The notes beneath the pieces were generated by a model that was not told the DNA's origin, searched no databases, and worked only from the letters and a program-made list of their open reading frames with translations. Shown here in pieces: positions 26,578 to 33,129 of a stretch of DNA of 64,000 nt. Origin of the DNA: Clostridiales bacterium. GTDB taxonomy: Bacteria; Bacillota; Clostridia; Lachnospirales; Vallitaleaceae. The translations under genes and the position numbers were made by a program. Each line of letters opens with the position of its first letter. Within the stretch, counting starts at the first letter, position 1. The stretch covers positions 3,368-67,367 of the forward strand of contig JAGXFY010000045.1 of assembly GCA_024636985.1 (NCBI GenBank). Reading direction: 5' to 3'.

Positions 26578-28305
26578 ATGAGCCATGAGATTTTTTATGC
26601 AACATTTTTTTATACTTTATCAGCCTTTATATCTATCGCAATCAACGCAATTTTTTATTTAAAGGCAAGAAAAAGTAATCTATTATTCATGTTTTTAAAA
26701 GCGCAAGGACTGATGCTACTTTGGCTGTTTGCCAAAGTTATGACAAAGACGGTACCAAGCAATGAAGATGCTTGGATATGGGTAATCATCCAATACATCG
26801 GTGTTTGTTATTTTGGTACAGTATTTTTTGAATTTATATATTATTATAAGAAATTCAAAATGCCATCACATAATATCAGAATCCTGATATATGGCCTACC
26901 AACCATTAATTTTCTGATGGTGTTGACCAATAAATATCATTATTTATTTTTTACATCGGTCACCATATACCAGAACAGCTATGGATTCTGGTTCTATATT
27001 CATACTGCCTTCAGTTACATAATGGTAGCAATTTCTTATTATCTTTTGATTCGAATACTAATAGACAGAAAAAATGAGATCTCATGGATACAGAATATCC
27101 TTTTCAATCTAGGTCTGCTATTACCAATTGTAGCGAATATTATTCATGTTTTCCGCTTGATAGAGATTGGATTTGATATCACGCCAATCATGTTTAACAT
27201 TACTTTGGCAATTTTTGGATATGTTGCCTATCGCTATCGGTTTTTGGATATAAAAATGGTAACAAGATCCATGATCCTAGGAAATATTCATGAAGGTATT
27301 ATTATTATGGACAACGACCGAAGAATCGTTGAGAAAAACAACATTATTGAGGATATTACCCAAAGTCACGAAAAACTTAAGCTTATTGAAACGATCGACG
27401 ATTTCATTGAAATTGTACGTCCTAAAATAGAAGATTTTGAAATCTTGCATCAAGATATAAGCAGGTGTCTTGATACCAATGAAAACAGATTATCTACAGA
27501 ATTTAGAATGTTAGTTCATAATGAATGGCATTGTTATATTCTAAAGCTTGAGAAAATTATAGACCATTCTAAAGACACCATCGGCTATGTGTTTAGAATT
27601 ATTGATATCACCAAATACAAATCATTACTGATGAGCTTAGAAGCCAAAAACAAGGATCTACAAGTGGTCAATCGGCAACTTTCCGATTACCTTACCATAA
27701 CGAAGCAATTAGCAATTGCGAAAGAAAGAAATAGAATATCTAAAGAAGTCCATGATATTTTAGGTCACTCCGTTACCCTAGTCATTTCACTTCTGGAAAG
27801 TTGTAAGTATAACATTGGTAGAAATACAGATTTCCTCAAAGAGAAAACCACTCAAAGCAAAGCCATTATCAGAGGTGGTTTTCTAGAATTGAAAAAATCC
27901 ATGAACAGTCAATTAAAAGACGACATAGATATCAACAGTCTTATTGATGATTTACAGCGGCTCATCGATGATTATGAAAAATCCGGCGTAAACGTTGATT
28001 TTTACTACAAGCGAGCAGATTTTAAGTTGACAATGCAAGTCTATGATGGCTTGTATAGAATATGCCAAGAAGCGCTGACCAATGCATTAAAACATGGGAA
28101 TGCAAAAAACATAACCATACGTATCAAATATATAGCTAGAACGATGGACTTGGTCATCATTGATGATGGAACTGGATCGCCGAAGGTTATAAAAGGTAAT
28201 GGGTTAAAAGGCATGGAAACGAGGGTGGCGGATTTGTCTGGATTCTTATCTTTTGGGTCACCGGATGGTGAGGGCTTTAATATTCATGCAGTTTTGCCGA
28301 TATAA
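26578..28305 (+). CDS. 7TM sensor histidine kinase (HisKA_3 + HATPase)
   Basis: ERNRISKEVHDILGHS; EALTNALKHG, IDDGTG, GNGLKGM boxes. Confidence 0.92.
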   Translation: MSHEIFYATFFYTLSAFISIAINAIFYLKARKSNLLFMFLKAQGLMLLWLFAKVMTKTVPSNEDAWIWVIIQYIGVCYFGTVFFEFIYYYKKFKMPSHNIRILIYGLPTINFLMVLTNKYHYLFFTSVTIYQNSYGFWFYIHTAFSYIMVAISYYLLIRILIDRKNEISWIQNILFNLGLLLPIVANIIHVFRLIEIGFDITPIMFNITLAIFGYVAYRYRFLDIKMVTRSMILGNIHEGIIIMDNDRRIVEKNNIIEDITQSHEKLKLIETIDDFIEIVRPKIEDFEILHQDISRCLDTNENRLSTEFRMLVHNEWHCYILKLEKIIDHSKDTIGYVFRIIDITKYKSLLMSLEAKNKDLQVVNRQLSDYLTITKQLAIAKERNRISKEVHDILGHSVTLVISLLESCKYNIGRNTDFLKEKTTQSKAIIRGGFLELKKSMNSQLKDDIDINSLIDDLQRLIDDYEKSGVNVDFYYKRADFKLTMQVYDGLYRICQEALTNALKHGNAKNITIRIKYIARTMDLVIIDDGTGSPKVIKGNGLKGMETRVADLSGFLSFGSPDGEGFNIHAVLPI

Positions 28306-28393
28306 TATAGAGTTTTTGTGTTCGGACAACAGTGGCATATAAGAATATAAGGCATTAAGCCTAGTATAAGTAAATAGTACTAGTTTATTGCGG

Positions 28394-28422
28394 TTGTACT
28401 ACCATCTTATCTGTACTATAAT
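28394..28422 (+). promoter_or_regulatory. SigA-type promoter for the 28524-31266 module
   Basis: TTGTAC, 17 bp, TATAAT; overlapped by an imperfect inverted repeat CCATCTTATCT...AGATAGGCAAGATGG. Confidence 0.55.
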
Positions 28423-28523
28423 TTAGATAGGCAAGATGGGAAACTATTCCAGTACTGAAGCAAGGCAAGATTTTATTGTTTTTGCAGGAACTGGAATGAC
28501 GTTTATTGAGTTAGGGGAGAAAT

Positions 28524-29153
28524 ATGAATATAGAATCTATAGAAAGATATCTGCAAAAAGTTCAATCCGTTCTTGGCTGTAAGATTACATTAGATCAAGA
28601 GGATAAAATCAGTGAGATCCATATTGTATCTGATCTTAGGCGAAGTCCTAAGCAAATCCTTCGTGATATTGAAGCCATCATGATTTCCGAATTCGATATT
28701 AATATTGATTATAAAAAGGTATCCATCGCTCAGATACAGAGCGGTTCTCTTAAGTTGGACCAAGATCCTAGGCTCAAGCTTAAGTTGATAGAGTATAATA
28801 ACAACGGTTCCAATGTCACCGTAAAAGTTGCTTTGGAAAAACAAGGAGAAATCTACGAAAGTGAGTTATTAGGTGTACATACGGCCAACAATTTTAAAAG
28901 GTTGATTGGTGCAGTGGTACTTAAGGCGGTAGAGAAATATTGTGATGCTACCGATGTATTTGTTTTCGAAGATGTTAAGAAAGTACACTTGGCCAACATG
29001 GAGGTGATGGTCGTTGCCATGACCTCAGTCTTTAATGGTTCGGAAGAGATATTCACCGGAACGGCCAAGATTCAAAACGACAGCAATGAAGCCATTGCTA
29101 GAGCCACCCTAGATGCGGTGAACCGTCATATTTTGCATCTGGATTTAATTTAA
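28524..29153 (+). CDS. Conserved hypothetical cytoplasmic protein; C-terminal part resembles the LeuA allosteric domain
   Basis: 209 aa, SD GGGGAG; repeated alpha/beta units ending GTAKIQNDSNEAIARATLDAVNR. Confidence 0.7.
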   Translation: MNIESIERYLQKVQSVLGCKITLDQEDKISEIHIVSDLRRSPKQILRDIEAIMISEFDINIDYKKVSIAQIQSGSLKLDQDPRLKLKLIEYNNNGSNVTVKVALEKQGEIYESELLGVHTANNFKRLIGAVVLKAVEKYCDATDVFVFEDVKKVHLANMEVMVVAMTSVFNGSEEIFTGTAKIQNDSNEAIARATLDAVNRHILHLDLI

Positions 29154-29264
29154 TTAATAGCCGACTAAATCATACAGCAACAACTTTTTTATCTAGAGGA
29201 GCGGAATATAGCCTGCTATTCATAGTGGATATAGCAGAGATCATAAAATGGAGGCTATATTTCA

Positions 29265-29357
29265 ATGAAAAATATAAAAGTTAGAGCAATGGCTACTATC
29301 GTTAGTTTAGTATCATTCCTTCTTGCATCAGGTGCACTTTGGAGCGTGACTAAATAA
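29265..29357 (+). CDS. Unannotated 30-aa signal-peptide-like ORF (MKNIKVRAMATIVSLVSFLLASGALWSVTK)
   Basis: SD GGAGG at 29250-29254, ATG 29265, TAA 29355-29357; basic N-region, hydrophobic core, short Trp-containing tail; too short for the ORF track. Confidence 0.75.
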   Translation: MKNIKVRAMATIVSLVSFLLASGALWSVTK

Positions 29358-29419
29358 TACAGTACAGCAAATGATAAAGTAATGGGTTTAGTCGGCTTTT
29401 AATAGTTTTGGAGGCAATA

Positions 29420-30724
29420 ATGAATAAGCTAAAAGGCTTTATTTTAATAGTATCAGCAATTGCCCTTCTCATATACTTTTACATGTTTGGAAGGTATGAG
29501 ATCTCTTATGAGGGTCTTATTTTTTGGGGTCTTTTGGCGATTGTTTCAGAGACGTTTGTAATTGTATTACCTAATGGTGCTTCAACTTCTGTGGGTATGG
29601 CTGTTTACTTAGCCACACTTATAACAATTAATCCCCTTGTAGCCGTCATGGTTTCGGGAATTGCTTTCATATTACGCTTACCAACAGTAGATGGGAAGCG
29701 TAAACATGTAATTAATATGGGTCTAGGAATCACTGCTTATAATATTGCTAGTCATACTATCTTTATCGGAATGATGGGAGCAGCCTATAATTATTTGGTT
29801 CATGAAAATACATCGTTCAATATGATTGCAATTATTGCATTGGTGCTTCTAAGCTTGACGGAATTGGTTAGTATTATATTCATTTCTTTATATTTCCGCT
29901 TTGATGAATCTCCAAGAAATATTCAGTTGATAAAAAGCTTTCTAGGCGCTTTACCAAGTACTTTTGCTGTAGGTTCCTTAGGTATTTTGTTGGCTTTTGC
30001 AGAACTAAACTATGGTAAGGTGATTGTTGCCCTGTTCTTCATACCTCTACTCCTCGCAAGATATTCTTTTAAACTTTATTTTGATTCCCAGAAGATGAGC
30101 ATGGAAACCATTCAAGCCTTGAATGAAGCACTATTAATGCGAGATGCTTATACAAGTGGACACGCCACAAGGGTGGAGCGGTATTCTGCTATCTTGGCGA
30201 AAGCTTTAAAATATTTACCAAATGAAATGGAAAACCTTCAAAAAGCAGCCAAACTCCATGATATAGGCAAGATTGGCATACCCGATGAAATCCTAAACAA
30301 AAGCGGTAAGTTATCAGAGGATGAATATAGTAAAATAAAGGATCATTCTGCCATGGGTGCCCAGATTCTTAGTAATGTGGATGCACTTAAAAAGATTTCT
30401 GAAGCAGTAAAATACCATCACGAAAGACCGGACGGAAAAGGCTATCCTGAAGGCTTAATTGGCGATACTATTCCAAGGGATGCTGCCATCCTTTCTATCG
30501 CAGACACCTTTGACGCCATGACGACTGACCGACCTTATCGTAAAGCACTAACACTAGACGAAGCTGTTGAGGAATTGATTCTTTATCGTGGTACTCAGTT
30601 TAACGCCAGTCTTGTAGGTATTGTCTTAGAACATATAGAAGAATTCAGAGTAATCCTTGAGGAAAGCCAAGAGGATGTACGGGATATTTATTATAACGAA
30701 GCCTTAAGTGAGGTTAGTGTATGA
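29420..30724 (+). CDS. Membrane-bound HD-GYP phosphodiesterase (probable c-di-GMP)
   Basis: Multi-TM N-terminal half; RDAYTSGH, LHDIGK, HHERPDGKGYP, IADTFDAMTTDRPYR; ATG 29420 after GGAGG. Confidence 0.92.
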   Translation: MNKLKGFILIVSAIALLIYFYMFGRYEISYEGLIFWGLLAIVSETFVIVLPNGASTSVGMAVYLATLITINPLVAVMVSGIAFILRLPTVDGKRKHVINMGLGITAYNIASHTIFIGMMGAAYNYLVHENTSFNMIAIIALVLLSLTELVSIIFISLYFRFDESPRNIQLIKSFLGALPSTFAVGSLGILLAFAELNYGKVIVALFFIPLLLARYSFKLYFDSQKMSMETIQALNEALLMRDAYTSGHATRVERYSAILAKALKYLPNEMENLQKAAKLHDIGKIGIPDEILNKSGKLSEDEYSKIKDHSAMGAQILSNVDALKKISEAVKYHHERPDGKGYPEGLIGDTIPRDAAILSIADTFDAMTTDRPYRKALTLDEAVEELILYRGTQFNASLVGIVLEHIEEFRVILEESQEDVRDIYYNEALSEVSV

Positions 30725-31266
30725 TTATTGAAAGCATCGTTCTCTCAATCCTTATAGGGTGGATTCGAAAAGGCAAATTGAGATATTTGGGCTCAATTGA
30801 GATTAAAGGCATTTACCTGTTTTTTATAGGTGGCTTATTTCAAATATTACTTTTTGCTATGGCGGATGAACAAGGAAGCGGCATCGTACGTATGCTCTAT
30901 GACCATTTTTATGTTTTACATTTATTAACTTATGTCATTATCATGGTACCGATTTTTCTCAACTTGAAGTGGCGAGGTCTGAATCTAATGGGTCTTGGAA
31001 CATTACTTAATCTAATACCTATTGCAGCCAACCAAGGAAGAATGCCGGTAGCACTTCCGGCACCCTATACGCCCAACTTTGATCTGGGCCATGTGTTGCT
31101 TGAGTCCGGCACCAGATTCAAGATGTTATCGGATGTTATTTTTATAGGTCCCCCTTACCCGATGCCAAAGATTATGAGTGTCGGCGATTTACTGATTATG
31201 GCAGGTGTATTTTGGCTTATACAAAGTGCAATGATGCTAGAAAAACCAAATCAAAAATCAATGTAG
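30721..31266 (+). CDS. DUF5317-like membrane protein with LspA-like aspartate motifs
   Basis: GTLLNL...NQGRMPV, LSD138VI and SVGD156LLIMAG; ATGA-coupled to the HD-GYP gene. Confidence 0.75.
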   Translation: MIIESIVLSILIGWIRKGKLRYLGSIEIKGIYLFFIGGLFQILLFAMADEQGSGIVRMLYDHFYVLHLLTYVIIMVPIFLNLKWRGLNLMGLGTLLNLIPIAANQGRMPVALPAPYTPNFDLGHVLLESGTRFKMLSDVIFIGPPYPMPKIMSVGDLLIMAGVFWLIQSAMMLEKPNQKSM

Positions 31267-31300
31267 AATCAGGTAATGAATCCATATAGAATAAAATCTA

Positions 31301-31330
31301 AAGACCGACAGAAAAAAGTCAGGTCTTTTT
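31301..31330 (+). terminator. Terminator closing the peptide/HD-GYP module
   Basis: AGACC-GAC...GTC-A-GGTCT followed by TTTT. Confidence 0.6.
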
Positions 31331-31395
31331 AATTGTTTTGTAATAAAGTATGGTGCAAGATATGATAGAATAAGTTTTAAGTGAGGAGTGATGGC

Positions 31396-33129
31396 TTGTT
31401 AAAACTTTTAAGAGTAACAGCTTTGATTATTGTATTTCTTTTGGTTGGTTTTGGAACCAACTTTTTTATAATGAAAAATGTCGATGAGACATATTTAATA
31501 GCGCCCAATATGACCATGGAGCCGGTTGAGAACCTGATGACCGGCCTAAGTGAGGAAGAAACCCTAGTCATTATGGAAAATAAGATGATTGAGCTTGACC
31601 ATTATCCTAGATATGTGGATGATGTTGTTTATGTTCCAATCACATTTGTTATGGACTATTTTAATGATGGCTTCTACTGGGACAATGAGGAAAAAATACT
31701 AACCTATACCACATTAAAAGACGTTATTCGTATGGAAACAAACGCCTTAACCTACTTTGTGAACAAAGACCCCATCTCCCTTGAGATTCCTATCAGAGAG
31801 TTGGTGGCAGACATTCCGTTTATGCCATTGGAACTGGTTAAAAAATTTGCCCACCACGACTTTTATTACGATGGTACAATTGATACTTTGACCATTGAAG
31901 ATAAGAGCTTAGATGGGACTTATGGTATCGTGTCCCCAAGTACTCAAGAATATGGTGTTATCCGTTCTTGGAAAGATAAGAAGAGTACAGTGGTCAAAAA
32001 AGCAGCAAGAGGAGAAGAAGTAAAGATTTATGAGGATGACGGCATATGGCAACAAGTGCGAACCAAAGAAGGCTTAATTGGGTATATCCGTAAAGATGAA
32101 ATGGGAGAAGAGCGACATATTGCAGGAGAGCCTGTGGTCAGAGAAATCTATAATTATGATACAAGACCAACTTTTGACGGGGCCCTAAACCTAGCATGGC
32201 ATCAGGTGACCAATTCAACAGCCAACCGCTACTTAGAGGATGTGCTTGAAGGTGTACATGGTCTGAATGTCATATCACCGACCTGGCTTCATATAAAAGA
32301 CTCAGAAGGTAATATAACCAATATTGCTGACCTGGATTATGTGAATAAAGCCCATGCCAGGGGCATACAAGTTTGGGCTTTATTTTCAAATCAGTTTGAT
32401 CGTAAGTTGACCCATGAGGTATTAAGCAGCACAACTAAAAGAGAAAAATTGATTAGGGAGTTACTGGCTTTATCCGCTCTTTATAACCTTGATGGTATCA
32501 ATGTAGACTTTGAAAATGTCGGACAGGAAGATGGAATCTACTTTATTCAGTTTATCAAAGAATTAACCCCTTATCTTAAAAACCAAGGCTTGGTGGTCTC
32601 GGTGGATATGTATGTACCTTCACAATGGACGGCTCACTATGGACGAAAAGAAATTGGTGAGATTGTAGATTATGTTATGATTATGGCTTATGATGAGCAT
32701 TGGTCGACTTCACCGGATAGTGGTTCAGTTGCCAGTATTGGATTTGTAGAAAAGGGTATTATTGATACACTTAAAGAAGTACCAAAAGAGAAGACGGTAC
32801 TTGGACTGCCTTACTATACGAGACGGTGGACAGAAGAAGTTGTCGACGGCGAGATAAAAGTATCATCAAGGGCTTATGGTATGGACACAGCTTATAAAAT
32901 CATGACTGAAGAAGGTGTGACATTCAGATGGTTAGATGACATTAAGCAATACTATGGAGAATATGAAAAAGATGGTAAGACCTATAAAATGTGGTTGGAA
33001 GAAGAACAATCCATTGAAGAAAAAGTAAAGTTGCTTTCCAAGCATCAATTAGTGGGTGTGGCCGGATGGAAGATTGGCTTAGAAAAAGAGGCCATTTGGG
33101 ATGTTCTAAGAAAACACCTTGTACCATAA
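31396..33129 (+). CDS. GH18 glycosyl hydrolase with N-terminal membrane anchor and SH3b-like domain (cell-wall/chitin hydrolase type)
   Basis: LDGINVDFE catalytic motif; IMAYDEHW; WQQVRTKEGLIGYI SH3-like segment; TTG at 31396 fits the SD better than GTG at 31381. Confidence 0.85.
   Translation: MLKLLRVTALIIVFLLVGFGTNFFIMKNVDETYLIAPNMTMEPVENLMTGLSEEETLVIMENKMIELDHYPRYVDDVVYVPITFVMDYFNDGFYWDNEEKILTYTTLKDVIRMETNALTYFVNKDPISLEIPIRELVADIPFMPLELVKKFAHHDFYYDGTIDTLTIEDKSLDGTYGIVSPSTQEYGVIRSWKDKKSTVVKKAARGEEVKIYEDDGIWQQVRTKEGLIGYIRKDEMGEERHIAGEPVVREIYNYDTRPTFDGALNLAWHQVTNSTANRYLEDVLEGVHGLNVISPTWLHIKDSEGNITNIADLDYVNKAHARGIQVWALFSNQFDRKLTHEVLSSTTKREKLIRELLALSALYNLDGINVDFENVGQEDGIYFIQFIKELTPYLKNQGLVVSVDMYVPSQWTAHYGRKEIGEIVDYVMIMAYDEHWSTSPDSGSVASIGFVEKGIIDTLKEVPKEKTVLGLPYYTRRWTEEVVDGEIKVSSRAYGMDTAYKIMTEEGVTFRWLDDIKQYYGEYEKDGKTYKMWLEEEQSIEEKVKLLSKHQLVGVAGWKIGLEKEAIWDVLRKHLVP

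Follow-up and report, generated by a model that had tools for sequence, protein, structure and literature searches.

A conserved micro-protein encoded upstream of MASE9 sensor genes: a candidate membrane partner whose gene lies within a conserved RNA

Organization of the locus

The locus lies in a window of 64,000 nucleotides (the whole stretch of DNA analyzed) whose host belongs to the genus Petrocella (Vallitaleaceae), and it comprises four genes on the + strand that an earlier, sequence-only reading had delineated correctly, with every ORF recovered at its given position in the ORF listing of the window. The genes encode p209, a 209-aa cytoplasmic protein (28524–29153, from the ORF); a 30-aa signal-peptide-like micro-protein, MKNIKVRAMATIVSLVSFLLASGALWSVTK (29265–29357, from the ORF, its conservation and a genome-unique pattern); a multi-TM protein in which a MASE9-type sensor domain is fused to an HD-GYP domain with intact motifs (29420–30724, from an HD_5 match and hydropathy); and a DUF5317 membrane protein (30721–31266, from a PF17248 match), the ATG of which overlaps the HD-GYP TGA (ATGA), an arrangement of translational coupling.

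The flanking control signals proposed by the same reading fare less evenly. A candidate promoter can be read from the sequence at 28394–28422 on the + strand (TTGTAC, 17-nt spacer, TATAAT) and has a perfect −10 element (TATAAT, 28417–28422), but its −35 element is weak, and because only three of the six −35 positions match, the promoter is missing from the list produced by a consensus scan. The proposed terminator at 31301–31330 does hold a hairpin of terminator type (AAGACCGAC / GTCaGGTCTT) flanked on each side by a T-run, read from the sequence with no strand assigned, but the scan places it on the minus strand (31322–31305); the hairpin can act in both directions.

A micro-protein under coding selection

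The micro-ORF has a GGAGG Shine–Dalgarno (SD) sequence 10 nt 5′ of it, and its product in the window is made up of a basic N-terminus, a hydrophobic span, an invariant A-S-G-A motif and the tail LWSVTK. When the 79,969 small ORFs of the 3.03-Mb genome were searched with a strict peptide pattern plus SD, the window micro-ORF was the one match. Orthologues of 24–31 aa occur at the same position and in the same frame in every Vallitaleaceae locus, all built from a basic N-terminus and a hydrophobic span followed by the small-residue motif and an aromatic/basic tail, and the same features recur in Tissierellia, Thermincola and Oscillospiraceae. Across a sample of 40 families of the phylum, an orthologue is found at the equivalent position in 30 of the 31 loci with the same gene order and in all five loci with the order DUF5317–peptide–HD-GYP; orthologues are also present in a second phylum, the Actinomycetota. 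The conservation of the short ORF in homologous loci, on which the sequence-only reading had staked its proposal, therefore reaches beyond the family and the class into a second phylum. Among codon differences, synonymous changes occur at least as often as non-synonymous ones. On these comparisons, we consider the micro-ORF to be real, conserved as a protein and under coding selection.

The C-terminal tail deserves separate attention, as it had been proposed to yield a pheromone of 7–8 aa. A product of that length is not a conserved feature: the tail that follows the invariant small-residue motif is usually 3–6 residues long, of the type x-[FYW]-[KRS]-[WFY], and the protein ends 3–10 residues past the hydrophobic core without an acidic tail. 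Among the orthologous peptides, no Cys follows the small-residue motif, except for a C-terminal Cys at a single locus (L076). Because the tail is identical in four Vallitalea species whose enzymes differ, there is no sign of pheromone-type diversification; judged by its sequence, the tail looks structural, short and of interfacial type. Several loci carry tandem duplicated peptide genes.

The MASE9–HD-GYP enzyme and its tie to the micro-protein

The output domain of the window enzyme matches HD_5 (PF13487) with an E-value of 2.8e-40, and its motifs LHDIGK, HHERPDGKGYP and DTFDAMTTDRPYR are intact; c-di-GMP phosphodiesterase activity is predicted from these features. The TTG listed as its start codon (29408) lies over the gene's own GGAGG, so that the ATG at 29420 is probably the true start. 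Ahead of the output domain, approximately residues 1–225 form a sensor domain with 7–8 hydrophobic segments by hydropathy, and conserved intramembrane N112, N155 and E48, an FN..Q motif and aromatic residues are those of a MASE9-type domain. The MASE9 profile (PF20972) is matched by 19 of 20 aligned orthologous N-domains (best E 2.6e-13); the window's own N-domain gives no PF20972 match at E ≤ 0.1 or at E ≤ 1, and the window protein aligns over its full length with the orthologues that match MASE9. By the identity of its orthologues, then, the sensor domain is assigned to MASE9.

Gene order ties the micro-protein to this domain, since the peptide gene is always directly 5′ of the MASE9 gene, whatever the position of the DUF5317 gene or the nature of the output domain. 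Outputs found behind MASE9 include HD-GYP, GGDEF-HD-GYP (locus L054) and a histidine kinase (locus L106). Thus, c-di-GMP output, which had been taken as the defining feature of the system, is not one, as the core of peptide, MASE9 and DUF5317 also drives a kinase. Sequence divergence tells a similar story. The sequence-only reading had called for co-variation of peptide and receptor, and in partial Mantel tests with the HD domain controlled, distances between peptide tails and between peptide TM segments do follow those of the HD-GYP protein's membrane domain (r 0.23 and 0.25, respectively, p ~0.001), in a set of 35 related loci that is prone to phylogenetic artefacts and in which MASE9 evolves faster than the HD control. 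In the same partial tests, peptide distances show no correlation with those of DUF5317. From order and divergence together, the peptide's partner appears to be MASE9, a domain whose ligand has been predicted to bind within the membrane (Galperin and Chou, 10.1101/2021.11.05.467447).

A structured RNA around the micro-ORF, and p209

The micro-ORF sits inside a conserved RNA that we describe here for the first time, one that combines a covarying long-range helix with AGCGR repeats whose occurrence tracks that of p209. In the minimum-free-energy (MFE) fold, the 5′ arm of the helix (AGCCGACTAAATC, 29159–29171, + strand) starts 5 nt past the p209 stop codon, and the 3′ arm (GGTTTAGTCGGCT, 29385–29397, + strand, supported by both the fold and covariation), which is followed by TTT..TTTT, lies 27 nt past the micro-ORF stop codon and just before the HD-GYP SD. 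Across loci, the 3′ arm begins a median of ~9 nt past the stop codon, and in many a U-rich tract comes after it. The helix is kept with compensatory changes in 29 loci: 16 of 18 pairs of this outer helix are changed on both sides, none of 500 shuffles reached the observed score, and 80.8% of cells are paired, a fraction inflated by an alignment that takes the best helix per locus.

Between the 5′ arm and the micro-ORF lies a structured leader (29199–29260, + strand, from alignment and RNAalifold) composed of GAGCGGA (29199–29205), a helix P1 (29206–29212 with 29254–29260) that overlaps the SD GGAGG (29250–29254), and a hairpin P2 (29213–29219 with 29231–29237) with the loop UAGUGGA (29223–29229). 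For P1 and P2, 99.4% of cells are paired, three pairs are changed on both sides, and the observed score was reached by 0 of 500 shuffles. The leader element is the sole one of its type in the genome, and the region 28200–31500 has no match in Rfam 15 at E ≤ 1, c-di-GMP-I and -II riboswitches included. The leader RNA carries 3–5 AGCGR repeats, one of them in the hairpin loop, and the density of these repeats per 120 nt is 2.83 at loci with p209 versus 0.6 at loci without it (background 0.25; p = 2e-5).

What might read such repeats? The p209 protein has no Pfam or NCBIfam match, and its family is large (3217 clusters at 50% identity) and syntenic in 15 of the 18 relatives' loci tested and in 28 of 40 loci of the phylum. 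An AlphaFold2 (AF2) model (pLDDT 88.9) shows an N-terminal alpha-beta-beta-alpha-beta domain followed by two beta-beta-beta-alpha units. Foldseek aligns the model with the LiCMS/LeuA regulatory domain 3f6g (probability 1.0, TMt 0.61) and, with low TM scores, with tandem dsRBDs (probability 0.9–0.98). Residues 95–208 also align with LeuA_dimer (PF08502) over 102 columns by hhalign (47%, E 1.9e-4), a moderate score for a protein that has no Pfam match of its own. Based on the model, the C-terminal half of p209 resembles the allosteric domain of LeuA, a regulatory domain of the amino-acid-binding type, and p209 probably senses a ligand and regulates the leader RNA that lies downstream. The co-occurrence suggests that the AGCGR repeats are probably what p209 binds.

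DUF5317, a conserved companion

The last gene product matches PF17248 over profile positions 2–151 of 151 (E 1.8e-31, 109.6 bits against a cut-off of 25), and an AF2 model (pLDDT 93.2, pTM 0.86) shows five TM helices and a conserved extracytoplasmic beta region. The two aspartates that had been noted as LspA-like motifs, D138 and D156, are 18 residues apart and are indeed invariant in 21 DUF5317 homologues, as are N97, N104, M108-P-V110, S153 and G155; His124 and Lys150 are near-invariant. By the positive-inside rule, this conserved Asp/Ser/Asn cluster is predicted to be on the extracytoplasmic face. The LspA part of the earlier description is not borne out. Comparison by hhalign with LspA proteins from the same genomes returned a probability of 1.3%, the best of the 20 PDB matches listed by Foldseek had an E of 2.2 and none of the 20 was an LspA, no PF01252 match was found, and an HMM search of the PDB yielded no LspA. 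The genome carries two genuine LspA genes. Judging from these searches, DUF5317 has no LspA homology.

The co-occurrence expected of DUF5317 with peptide ORFs and membrane HD-GYP genes is borne out: in 37 of the 40 families sampled, DUF5317 is adjacent to the MASE9 gene, together with the micro-ORF and a membrane HD-GYP. In the two phyla, 101 of 301 and 59 of 151 genomes sampled carry DUF5317, and in some Actinomycetota it is fused to a further polytopic domain of ~390 aa that has no Pfam match. A literature search returned no paper that mentions DUF5317.

Proposed mechanism and alternatives

On the sequence evidence, micro-protein, MASE9 sensor protein and DUF5317 make up a widespread and previously unstudied module, of which we located no published description. 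Our preferred reading, to which we assign a probability of about one half, is that the micro-protein is a membrane-resident partner of MASE9 whose synthesis is gated by RNA and p209. The micro-protein would be a single-pass protein with its N-terminus inside and its short C-terminal tail outside, and it would stay in the membrane, where it would serve the MASE9 domain as a partner or ligand. We infer a physical complex, and a direction of regulation in which the micro-protein sets the activity of the output domain, such that c-di-GMP degradation would depend on the amount of micro-protein. The ATGA overlap would cause DUF5317 to be made in a fixed ratio with the enzyme, and DUF5317 would serve as a third, obligate subunit by which the micro-protein is held, matured or removed, by means of its outer-face Asp/Ser/Asn cluster. 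Control over how much micro-protein is made would be post-transcriptional, the ORF being within a structured RNA that is closed by the long-range helix and that has, in this family, a leader helix over the SD, and p209, with its LeuA-type small-molecule-binding domain, would bind the AGCGR repeats of the leader RNA.

Some features sit less easily with a membrane-resident protein. The micro-protein looks exactly like a signal peptide, with an n-region, an h-region of 11–16 residues and small residues at −3 and −1, and therefore cleavage and release are plausible. Between charges, the hydrophobic stretch of many orthologues is only 14–17 residues long, on the short side for a stable TM helix. 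Additionally, a hydrolase would account for the invariant Asp/Ser/(His/Lys) set at the outer leaflet in DUF5317 just as well as a binding site would.

The strongest competitor builds on this resemblance: the micro-protein would be a precursor cut after small-x-small (between ASGA and LWSVTK), either by DUF5317 as a membrane peptidase of a new kind or by ordinary signal peptidase I, releasing a 4–7-residue extracellular signal sensed by MASE9, and quorum-type c-di-GMP control would result. Small residues do precede the tail at −3 and −1 in all orthologues, even in those found without that criterion; the h-region is short; and Asp138, Asp156, Ser153, Asn97/104, His124 and Lys150 of DUF5317 are predicted, by the positive-inside rule, to face the place where the peptide motif would be. 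The fusion of DUF5317 to the ~390-aa polytopic domain recalls peptidase–exporter fusions, and the tandem gene duplicates and the tail divergence that follows MASE9 likewise count in its favour. However, no relation of DUF5317 to LspA or to any solved peptidase fold could be detected, the tail is under purifying rather than diversifying selection and has a generic interfacial aromatic/basic pattern, and at 24–30 aa the protein lacks the length needed for co-translational Sec export. Neither an exporter nor an Opp-type importer is encoded in the operon, which also has no component of RRNPP or Agr systems, and the outer loops of MASE9 are short and poorly conserved, with the ligand predicted to be intramembrane. 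We regard a released signal as unlikely, while taking it seriously.

Two further readings assign the micro-protein another role, and we consider both improbable. The micro-ORF could act mainly in cis, as a leader peptide whose product has no function in trans, in which case a ribosome at the end of the ORF would melt the 3′ arm and so control read-through into, or translation of, HD-GYP and DUF5317. The short median distance from stop codon to 3′ arm, often with a U-rich tract behind it, is suggestive of such an arrangement, as are the closeness of the 5′ arm to the p209 stop in the window, the leader helix over the SD, and conserved Trp/aromatic residues beside the stop codon, which are seen in some regulatory nascent peptides. 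But hydrophobic periodicity, basic N-terminus and small-residue motif are kept while the nucleotides diverge across phyla, which is typical of a functional membrane peptide and not of a translated spacer, and peptide divergence correlates with MASE9. Moreover, in the window the 3′ arm is outside the footprint of a terminating ribosome, and at DUF5317–peptide–HD-GYP loci the peptide gene begins 18–74 nt past the DUF5317 stop codon with only 0–1 AGCGR per 120 nt upstream. No better are the chances that the micro-protein is a structural subunit of a DUF5317 machine (a channel, a transporter or a lipid-handling device) whose state the MASE9 enzyme only monitors. Co-occurrence of peptide and DUF5317 in two phyla, including loci with no HMM-detected HD-GYP nearby, and the DUF5317 fusions with a larger polytopic domain seen in certain genomes would suit such a machine; yet when gene order varies, it is the MASE9 gene and not DUF5317 that the peptide gene precedes, and peptide and DUF5317 divergence show no partial correlation.

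Implications

Taken to its full extent, our proposal is that p209, as a member of a new class of RNA-binding proteins that sense a ligand, reads AGCGR in the new RNA and thereby releases translation of the micro-protein, and that the micro-protein, or a 4–7-residue tail cut from it by DUF5317 as a membrane peptidase of a new type, is the MASE9 ligand that directly switches c-di-GMP hydrolysis or, in other lineages, a kinase. We hold this complete chain only tentatively, and the odds are against its being right in every link. If true, it would amount to a self-contained, unrecognised signalling system in about a third of Clostridia-type genomes and many actinobacterial ones. MASE9 is one of many orphan membrane sensor domains of c-di-GMP enzymes with no known signal, and the micro-protein encoded upstream represents a concrete candidate ligand or partner. 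The module brings together two families of unknown function, one family without a Pfam model and an RNA element absent from Rfam, and its micro-protein family is mostly below gene-calling length. Its solution would give second-messenger control in anaerobic Firmicutes and Actinomycetota a new layer, in which a micro-protein is combined with RNA/protein gating, and would reveal the extent of signalling biology hidden in ORFs of fewer than 30 codons.

Comparison with known systems

MASE9–HD-GYP proteins, defined as such by Galperin and Chou, include TM1467 of T. maritima and HdgA/HdgB of S. venezuelae (10.1101/2021.11.05.467447). Mutants in HdgA/HdgB had no phenotype, for which the authors suspected missing activating signals (PMC6205966); presumably, the absence of a signal is indeed the cause. 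Like these proteins, the window's orthologues have a multi-TM MASE9 domain fused to HD-GYP, and actinobacterial loci place an hdgA–hdgB-like pair beside p209 and DUF5317. Unlike them, the window N-domain is too divergent for a direct PF20972 match. The small ORF, DUF5317, p209 and the RNA leader are mentioned in neither report (10.1101/2021.11.05.467447; PMC6205966).

Several better-known systems resemble individual parts of the module. With signal peptidase II (LspA, peptidase A8), DUF5317 shares small size, a polytopic build and two conserved Asp residues ~18 apart, the second of which opens the last TM helix; between the two, hhalign matches nothing but SIGD with NVAD. DUF5317 differs in helix number and order from LspA, a fold of 4 TM helices plus a beta-cradle, and the peptide has no lipobox Cys. 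Agr (AgrD/AgrB/AgrC), Rgg/SHP and Phr are peptide pheromone systems of Gram-positive bacteria, and the module is like them in setting a short peptide with a basic N-terminus and a hydrophobic core beside a polytopic protein and a candidate membrane receptor; the micro-protein tails are comparable in length with Phr or SHP products. Unlike in these systems, the candidate receptor has HD-GYP as its output, in place of a kinase or a transcription factor, and the tail is not diversified between species. Identity with Agr was rejected (no AgrB or AgrD family match, no acidic C-terminal tail, no thiolactone Cys/Ser), as was identity with RRNPP/Rgg–SHP (p209 has no TPR or Pfam domain, and there are no Opp genes in the unit and no PptAB).

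TRAP, HutP and PyrR are attenuation proteins that respond to a ligand and bind RNA at short motifs present in several copies. Like them, p209 is encoded beside a leader with a repeated motif, AGCGR, and the two co-occur; p209 has no sequence relation to these proteins, and its RNA binding and ligand are predicted. Finally, MgrB and SafA are small single-pass membrane proteins that modulate the membrane sensor PhoQ. Similarly, the micro-protein is shorter than 50 aa, has a single hydrophobic span and is linked by gene position to a membrane sensor, whose membrane or periplasmic part it may bind so as to set the sensor's output, and its level is again the proposed regulated variable. It differs in having no sequence relation to MgrB or SafA and in its predicted target, an enzyme whose sensor domain is polytopic and whose output is a c-di-GMP phosphodiesterase or, at other loci, a kinase, and the module adds DUF5317 and a dedicated RNA/protein control layer.

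A conserved module with a micro-protein

The ORF listing and the raw sequence of the window confirm the four co-directional genes that the sequence-only reading had described. On the forward strand, these genes encode p209, a 209-residue cytoplasmic protein (28524–29153); a 30-residue signal-peptide-like micro-protein, MKNIKVRAMATIVSLVSFLLASGALWSVTK (29265–29357), with GGAGG 10 nt upstream of its start; a membrane HD-GYP protein of 434 or 438 residues, starting at an ATG at 29420 or a TTG at 29408; and a 181-residue DUF5317 protein (30721–31266), whose own ATG overlaps the HD-GYP stop codon (ATGA). Translation of HD-GYP probably begins at the ATG, which has GGAGG 5 nt upstream of it, since the listed TTG falls within that Shine–Dalgarno (SD) sequence. 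Pfam matches HD_5 to residues 238–401 of the HD-GYP protein (2.8e-40) and DUF5317 to the 181-residue protein (1.8e-31), with no match for p209, the micro-protein or the N-terminal 230 residues of the HD-GYP protein, and NCBIfam adds nothing further for the four proteins. As to the unit's proposed ends, a terminator-like hairpin is indeed present at 31301–31330, both in the sequence and in the scan, whereas the promoter claim holds in part: the −10 element is perfect, but the −35 element is poor and the promoter scan does not list it. Downstream, a GH18/Cu_amine_oxidN1/SH3 protein (31381–33129) is conserved beside the module across Vallitaleaceae (12 loci). Upstream lies a HisKA_7TM/HisKA_3/HATPase sensor kinase (26578–28305). 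Outside Petrocella and a few of its relatives, it is not conserved next to the module, to which it thus probably does not belong.

The synteny of p209, HD-GYP and DUF5317 holds in the loci of 17 relatives, down to 34% identity, and in each of these loci an ORF of 25–31 residues sits between p209 and the HD-GYP gene (for example, MKKIIVALVSLLSLVLSAGAWISVW, MKKLVNILLGLVTMLLASGAVWTATDRITL and MKTKAIALLMTILSLLLASGATHSWR). The peptide ORF is likewise found in Brassicibacter, in Thermincola and in an Oscillospiraceae MAG, and as two tandem copies in a Thermoleophilia MAG. A survey of the phylum recovered DUF5317 in 101 of 301 genomes, and 40 loci were examined from 40 sampled families. The sequence-only reading had expected short ORFs and membrane HD-GYP genes to accompany DUF5317, and both do: a gene of the HD-GYP type with a homologous membrane domain adjoins DUF5317 in 37 of the 40 loci (p209 is present in 28), and of the 31 loci arranged as in the window, 30 contain the peptide, as do all five that are ordered DUF5317–peptide–long HD-GYP. 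The peptide consensus, MK..TLVK(V/I)LLAL.AL(V/I)LAGGA-x-[FYW]-[KRS]-[WFY], combined with an SD, has one match among the 79,969 small ORFs of the whole 3.03-Mb genome, and that match is the window's micro-ORF. Within genera, synonymous codon differences in the peptide gene equal or exceed non-synonymous ones, and four Vallitalea species have an identical peptide despite 1–4 silent changes. Some pipelines already annotate the 30-residue Petrocella peptide, unnamed; nine shorter orthologues are absent from a collection of 15 billion proteins. We regard the gene set as an established conserved module, and translation and function of the micro-protein are strongly implied.

Variations on the arrangement are also seen. 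Tandem micro-protein genes with near-identical tails occur at several Firmicutes and Actinomycetota loci (L087, L106, L108 and L051), and at three actinobacterial loci (L119, L122 and L123) a family-like peptide ORF runs in the opposite direction to the flanking MASE9-like genes, either because the genes are arranged divergently or because ORFs are miscalled in high-GC DNA.

The proposed MASE9 partner and its outputs

The N-terminal region of the HD-GYP protein has 7–8 hydrophobic segments, with Glu, Asn, Gln and aromatic residues conserved within the membrane. The window's own N-domain falls below the Pfam threshold for MASE9 (PF20972), and 19 of 20 orthologous N-domains match this model (best E 2.6e-13). 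MASE9 was defined on T. maritima TM1467, and its ligand was predicted to bind within the membrane (Galperin and Chou, 10.1101/2021.11.05.467447). What follows MASE9 differs from locus to locus; for example, we find MASE9-GGDEF-HD-GYP (L054), a MASE9 protein with an added HATPase_c_2 (L061), an extra MASE9-PAS-HisKA kinase (L090) and, immediately after two tandem peptide genes, an actinobacterial MASE9-GAF-HisKA-HATPase protein (L106). Because the output domain varies, the conserved core is peptide, MASE9 and DUF5317, with c-di-GMP as the probable output at this locus; in other words, the c-di-GMP output originally proposed fits the HD-GYP domain here but does not define the module, whose core is joined to a kinase or to GGDEF-HD-GYP at other loci.

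DUF5317 is also present in 59 of 151 Actinomycetota genomes, where clusters hold p209, an HD-GYP pair like hdgA/hdgB, DUF5317 and peptides such as MSKRLLVAMSSLAALVLSAGANVSWIR. For hdgA/hdgB of S. venezuelae, mutants were without phenotype and a neighbouring peptide was not reported (PMC6205966). A second HD-GYP gene, often degenerate or split, lies between the first and DUF5317 at ten loci (L049, L058, L078, L081, L105, L110, L112, L114, L117 and L121), an arrangement that recalls the hdgA–hdgB pair. A DUF5317 match was seen in a control genome as well.

Which protein does the peptide track? In Mantel tests over 35 loci, distances of the peptide tail and of its TM segment correlate best with those of the MASE9 domain, and with the catalytic domain controlled for, the partial r is 0.23 and 0.25, respectively (p about 0.001), values that are only suggestive of the peptide/receptor co-variation anticipated from the sequence, given the relatedness of the loci compared and the liberal nature of Mantel tests. 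Between peptide and DUF5317, the same 35 loci show no partial correlation. Gene order agrees with this pattern: the position of DUF5317 shifts between loci, and the peptide gene remains immediately upstream of the MASE9 gene.

DUF5317

Among 21 DUF5317 homologues, N97, N104, M108-P-V110, D138, S153, G155 and D156 never vary, and H124 and K150 rarely do; by the positive-inside rule, this cluster should lie on the outer face of the membrane. The AlphaFold2 (AF2) model (pLDDT 93.2, pTM 0.86) has five long helices, the fourth and fifth of which are separated by a small beta region. The sequence-only reading had taken the protein for an LspA-like protease, a relationship that does not survive comparison: Pfam gives no support, the best Foldseek match in the PDB has an E of 2.2 with LspA not among the 20 matches, and an hhalign comparison with the LspA proteins from these genomes reaches a probability of 1.3%, its sole local match, SIGD/NVAD, being the likeness noticed at first. 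Genuine LspA (Peptidase_A8) is encoded twice in the genome, by paralogues on contigs C69 (1304–1720) and C83 (40894–41298). A profile search against PDB sequences also returned nothing useful, and from the absence of a match the modelled fold is new among the structures solved so far. Judging from the conserved residues, DUF5317 may be catalytic, through Asp/Asp, Ser/His or Ser/Lys. Additionally, in an open frame at the actinobacterial locus L051 (5764–7512) and in others of ∼310–740 residues, repeatedly in Actinomycetota, DUF5317 has a second polytopic membrane region, ∼390 residues long, fused to it; Pfam has no match for the C-terminal 390 residues of the L051 fusion.

p209 and the RNA around the micro-ORF

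In the MFE fold, a long-range helix (29159–29171 with 29385–29397, forward strand) encloses the micro-ORF, with a GNCCGRC/GYCGGNC core and compensatory flanks. RNAduplex on long flanks gave over-extended helices and weak z-scores; the arms were instead located by searching for ungapped helices around the CCGRC core. Across 29 loci, 80.8% of cells are paired and both partners have changed in 16 of 18 pairs, figures to be read with the caveat that the arms are the best helix per locus; none of 500 shuffles reaches the score, and slid controls drop to 25–42%. The 3′ arm, often followed by a U-tract, begins a median of ∼9 nt past the stop codon across loci and 27 nt past it in the window. Inside the long-range helix, also on the forward strand, are a leader helix, P1 (29206–12 with 29254–60), which overlaps the SD, and a leader hairpin, P2 (29213–19 with 29231–37); in the two together, 99.4% of cells are paired and there is some covariation. 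AGCGR motifs precede P1 and recur in the P2 loop, at 2.83 per 120 nt in loci with p209 (n=35) versus 0.6 in loci without it (n=10), over a background of 0.25 (Mann–Whitney p = 2e-5). No Rfam family matches anywhere in 28200–31500 (E ≤ 1), and the genome holds no second copy of the element. To us, the RNA at 29159–29400 looks like a new class of cis-regulatory RNA tied to p209. The terminator stem at 31301–31330 holds GACCGAC, a core shared with the closing helix (AGCCGAC), possibly by coincidence.

The p209 family comprises 3217 representative clusters at 50% identity, nearly all of 205–230 residues, with no Pfam model; a profile search against PDB sequences was unproductive, and fusions of p209 (L065 and L073) carry no informative extra domains. 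Its AF2 model (pLDDT 88.9) consists of an alpha-beta-beta-alpha-beta domain followed by two beta-beta-beta-alpha units. Foldseek retrieves the LiCMS/LeuA regulatory domain 3f6g (probability 1.0, TMt 0.61) and also tandem dsRBDs, with high probability and low TM. Additionally, when aligned by hhalign with the LeuA_dimer domains that the same genomes encode, p209 scores 47% (E 1.9e-4) across the entire two-repeat domain, and the two have a common ending, G.G.D.N..A..A...A(V/I)NR. The C-terminal half of p209 thus resembles the LeuA/CimA allosteric (LeuA_dimer) domain, and we infer that p209 is a putative ligand-sensing regulator reading the AGCGR leader.

Mechanism and relation to known systems

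As to molecular mechanism, the micro-protein may stay in the membrane or may be cut and released. We put a probability of roughly 0.5 on the micro-protein staying in the membrane, where it would act as a partner of MASE9. Its tail is short, conserved and interfacial and does not diversify, the MASE9 ligand site is predicted to be intramembrane, no export or import genes are found, and the peptide is too small for Sec targeting. These same points weigh against the release of a signal by cleavage, the pheromone model first put forward, which we consider unlikely even though the peptide is built exactly like a signal peptide, with small amino acids at positions −3 and −1 and a short hydrophobic core, and the invariant outer-face residues of DUF5317 are hydrolase-like. 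Improbable still, and clearly more so than release, is a micro-ORF that serves purely as a cis-acting leader peptide; we would give a machine centred on DUF5317 similarly long odds.

The earlier impression that no system of this architecture had been characterised holds for the literature searched, in which the module is undescribed: DUF5317 has no mention there, and the peptide is absent from the papers on MASE9. By analogy, the module would be akin to the control of membrane sensors by micro-proteins, to which it would add an RNA element that is new and protein families that are as yet uncharacterised.
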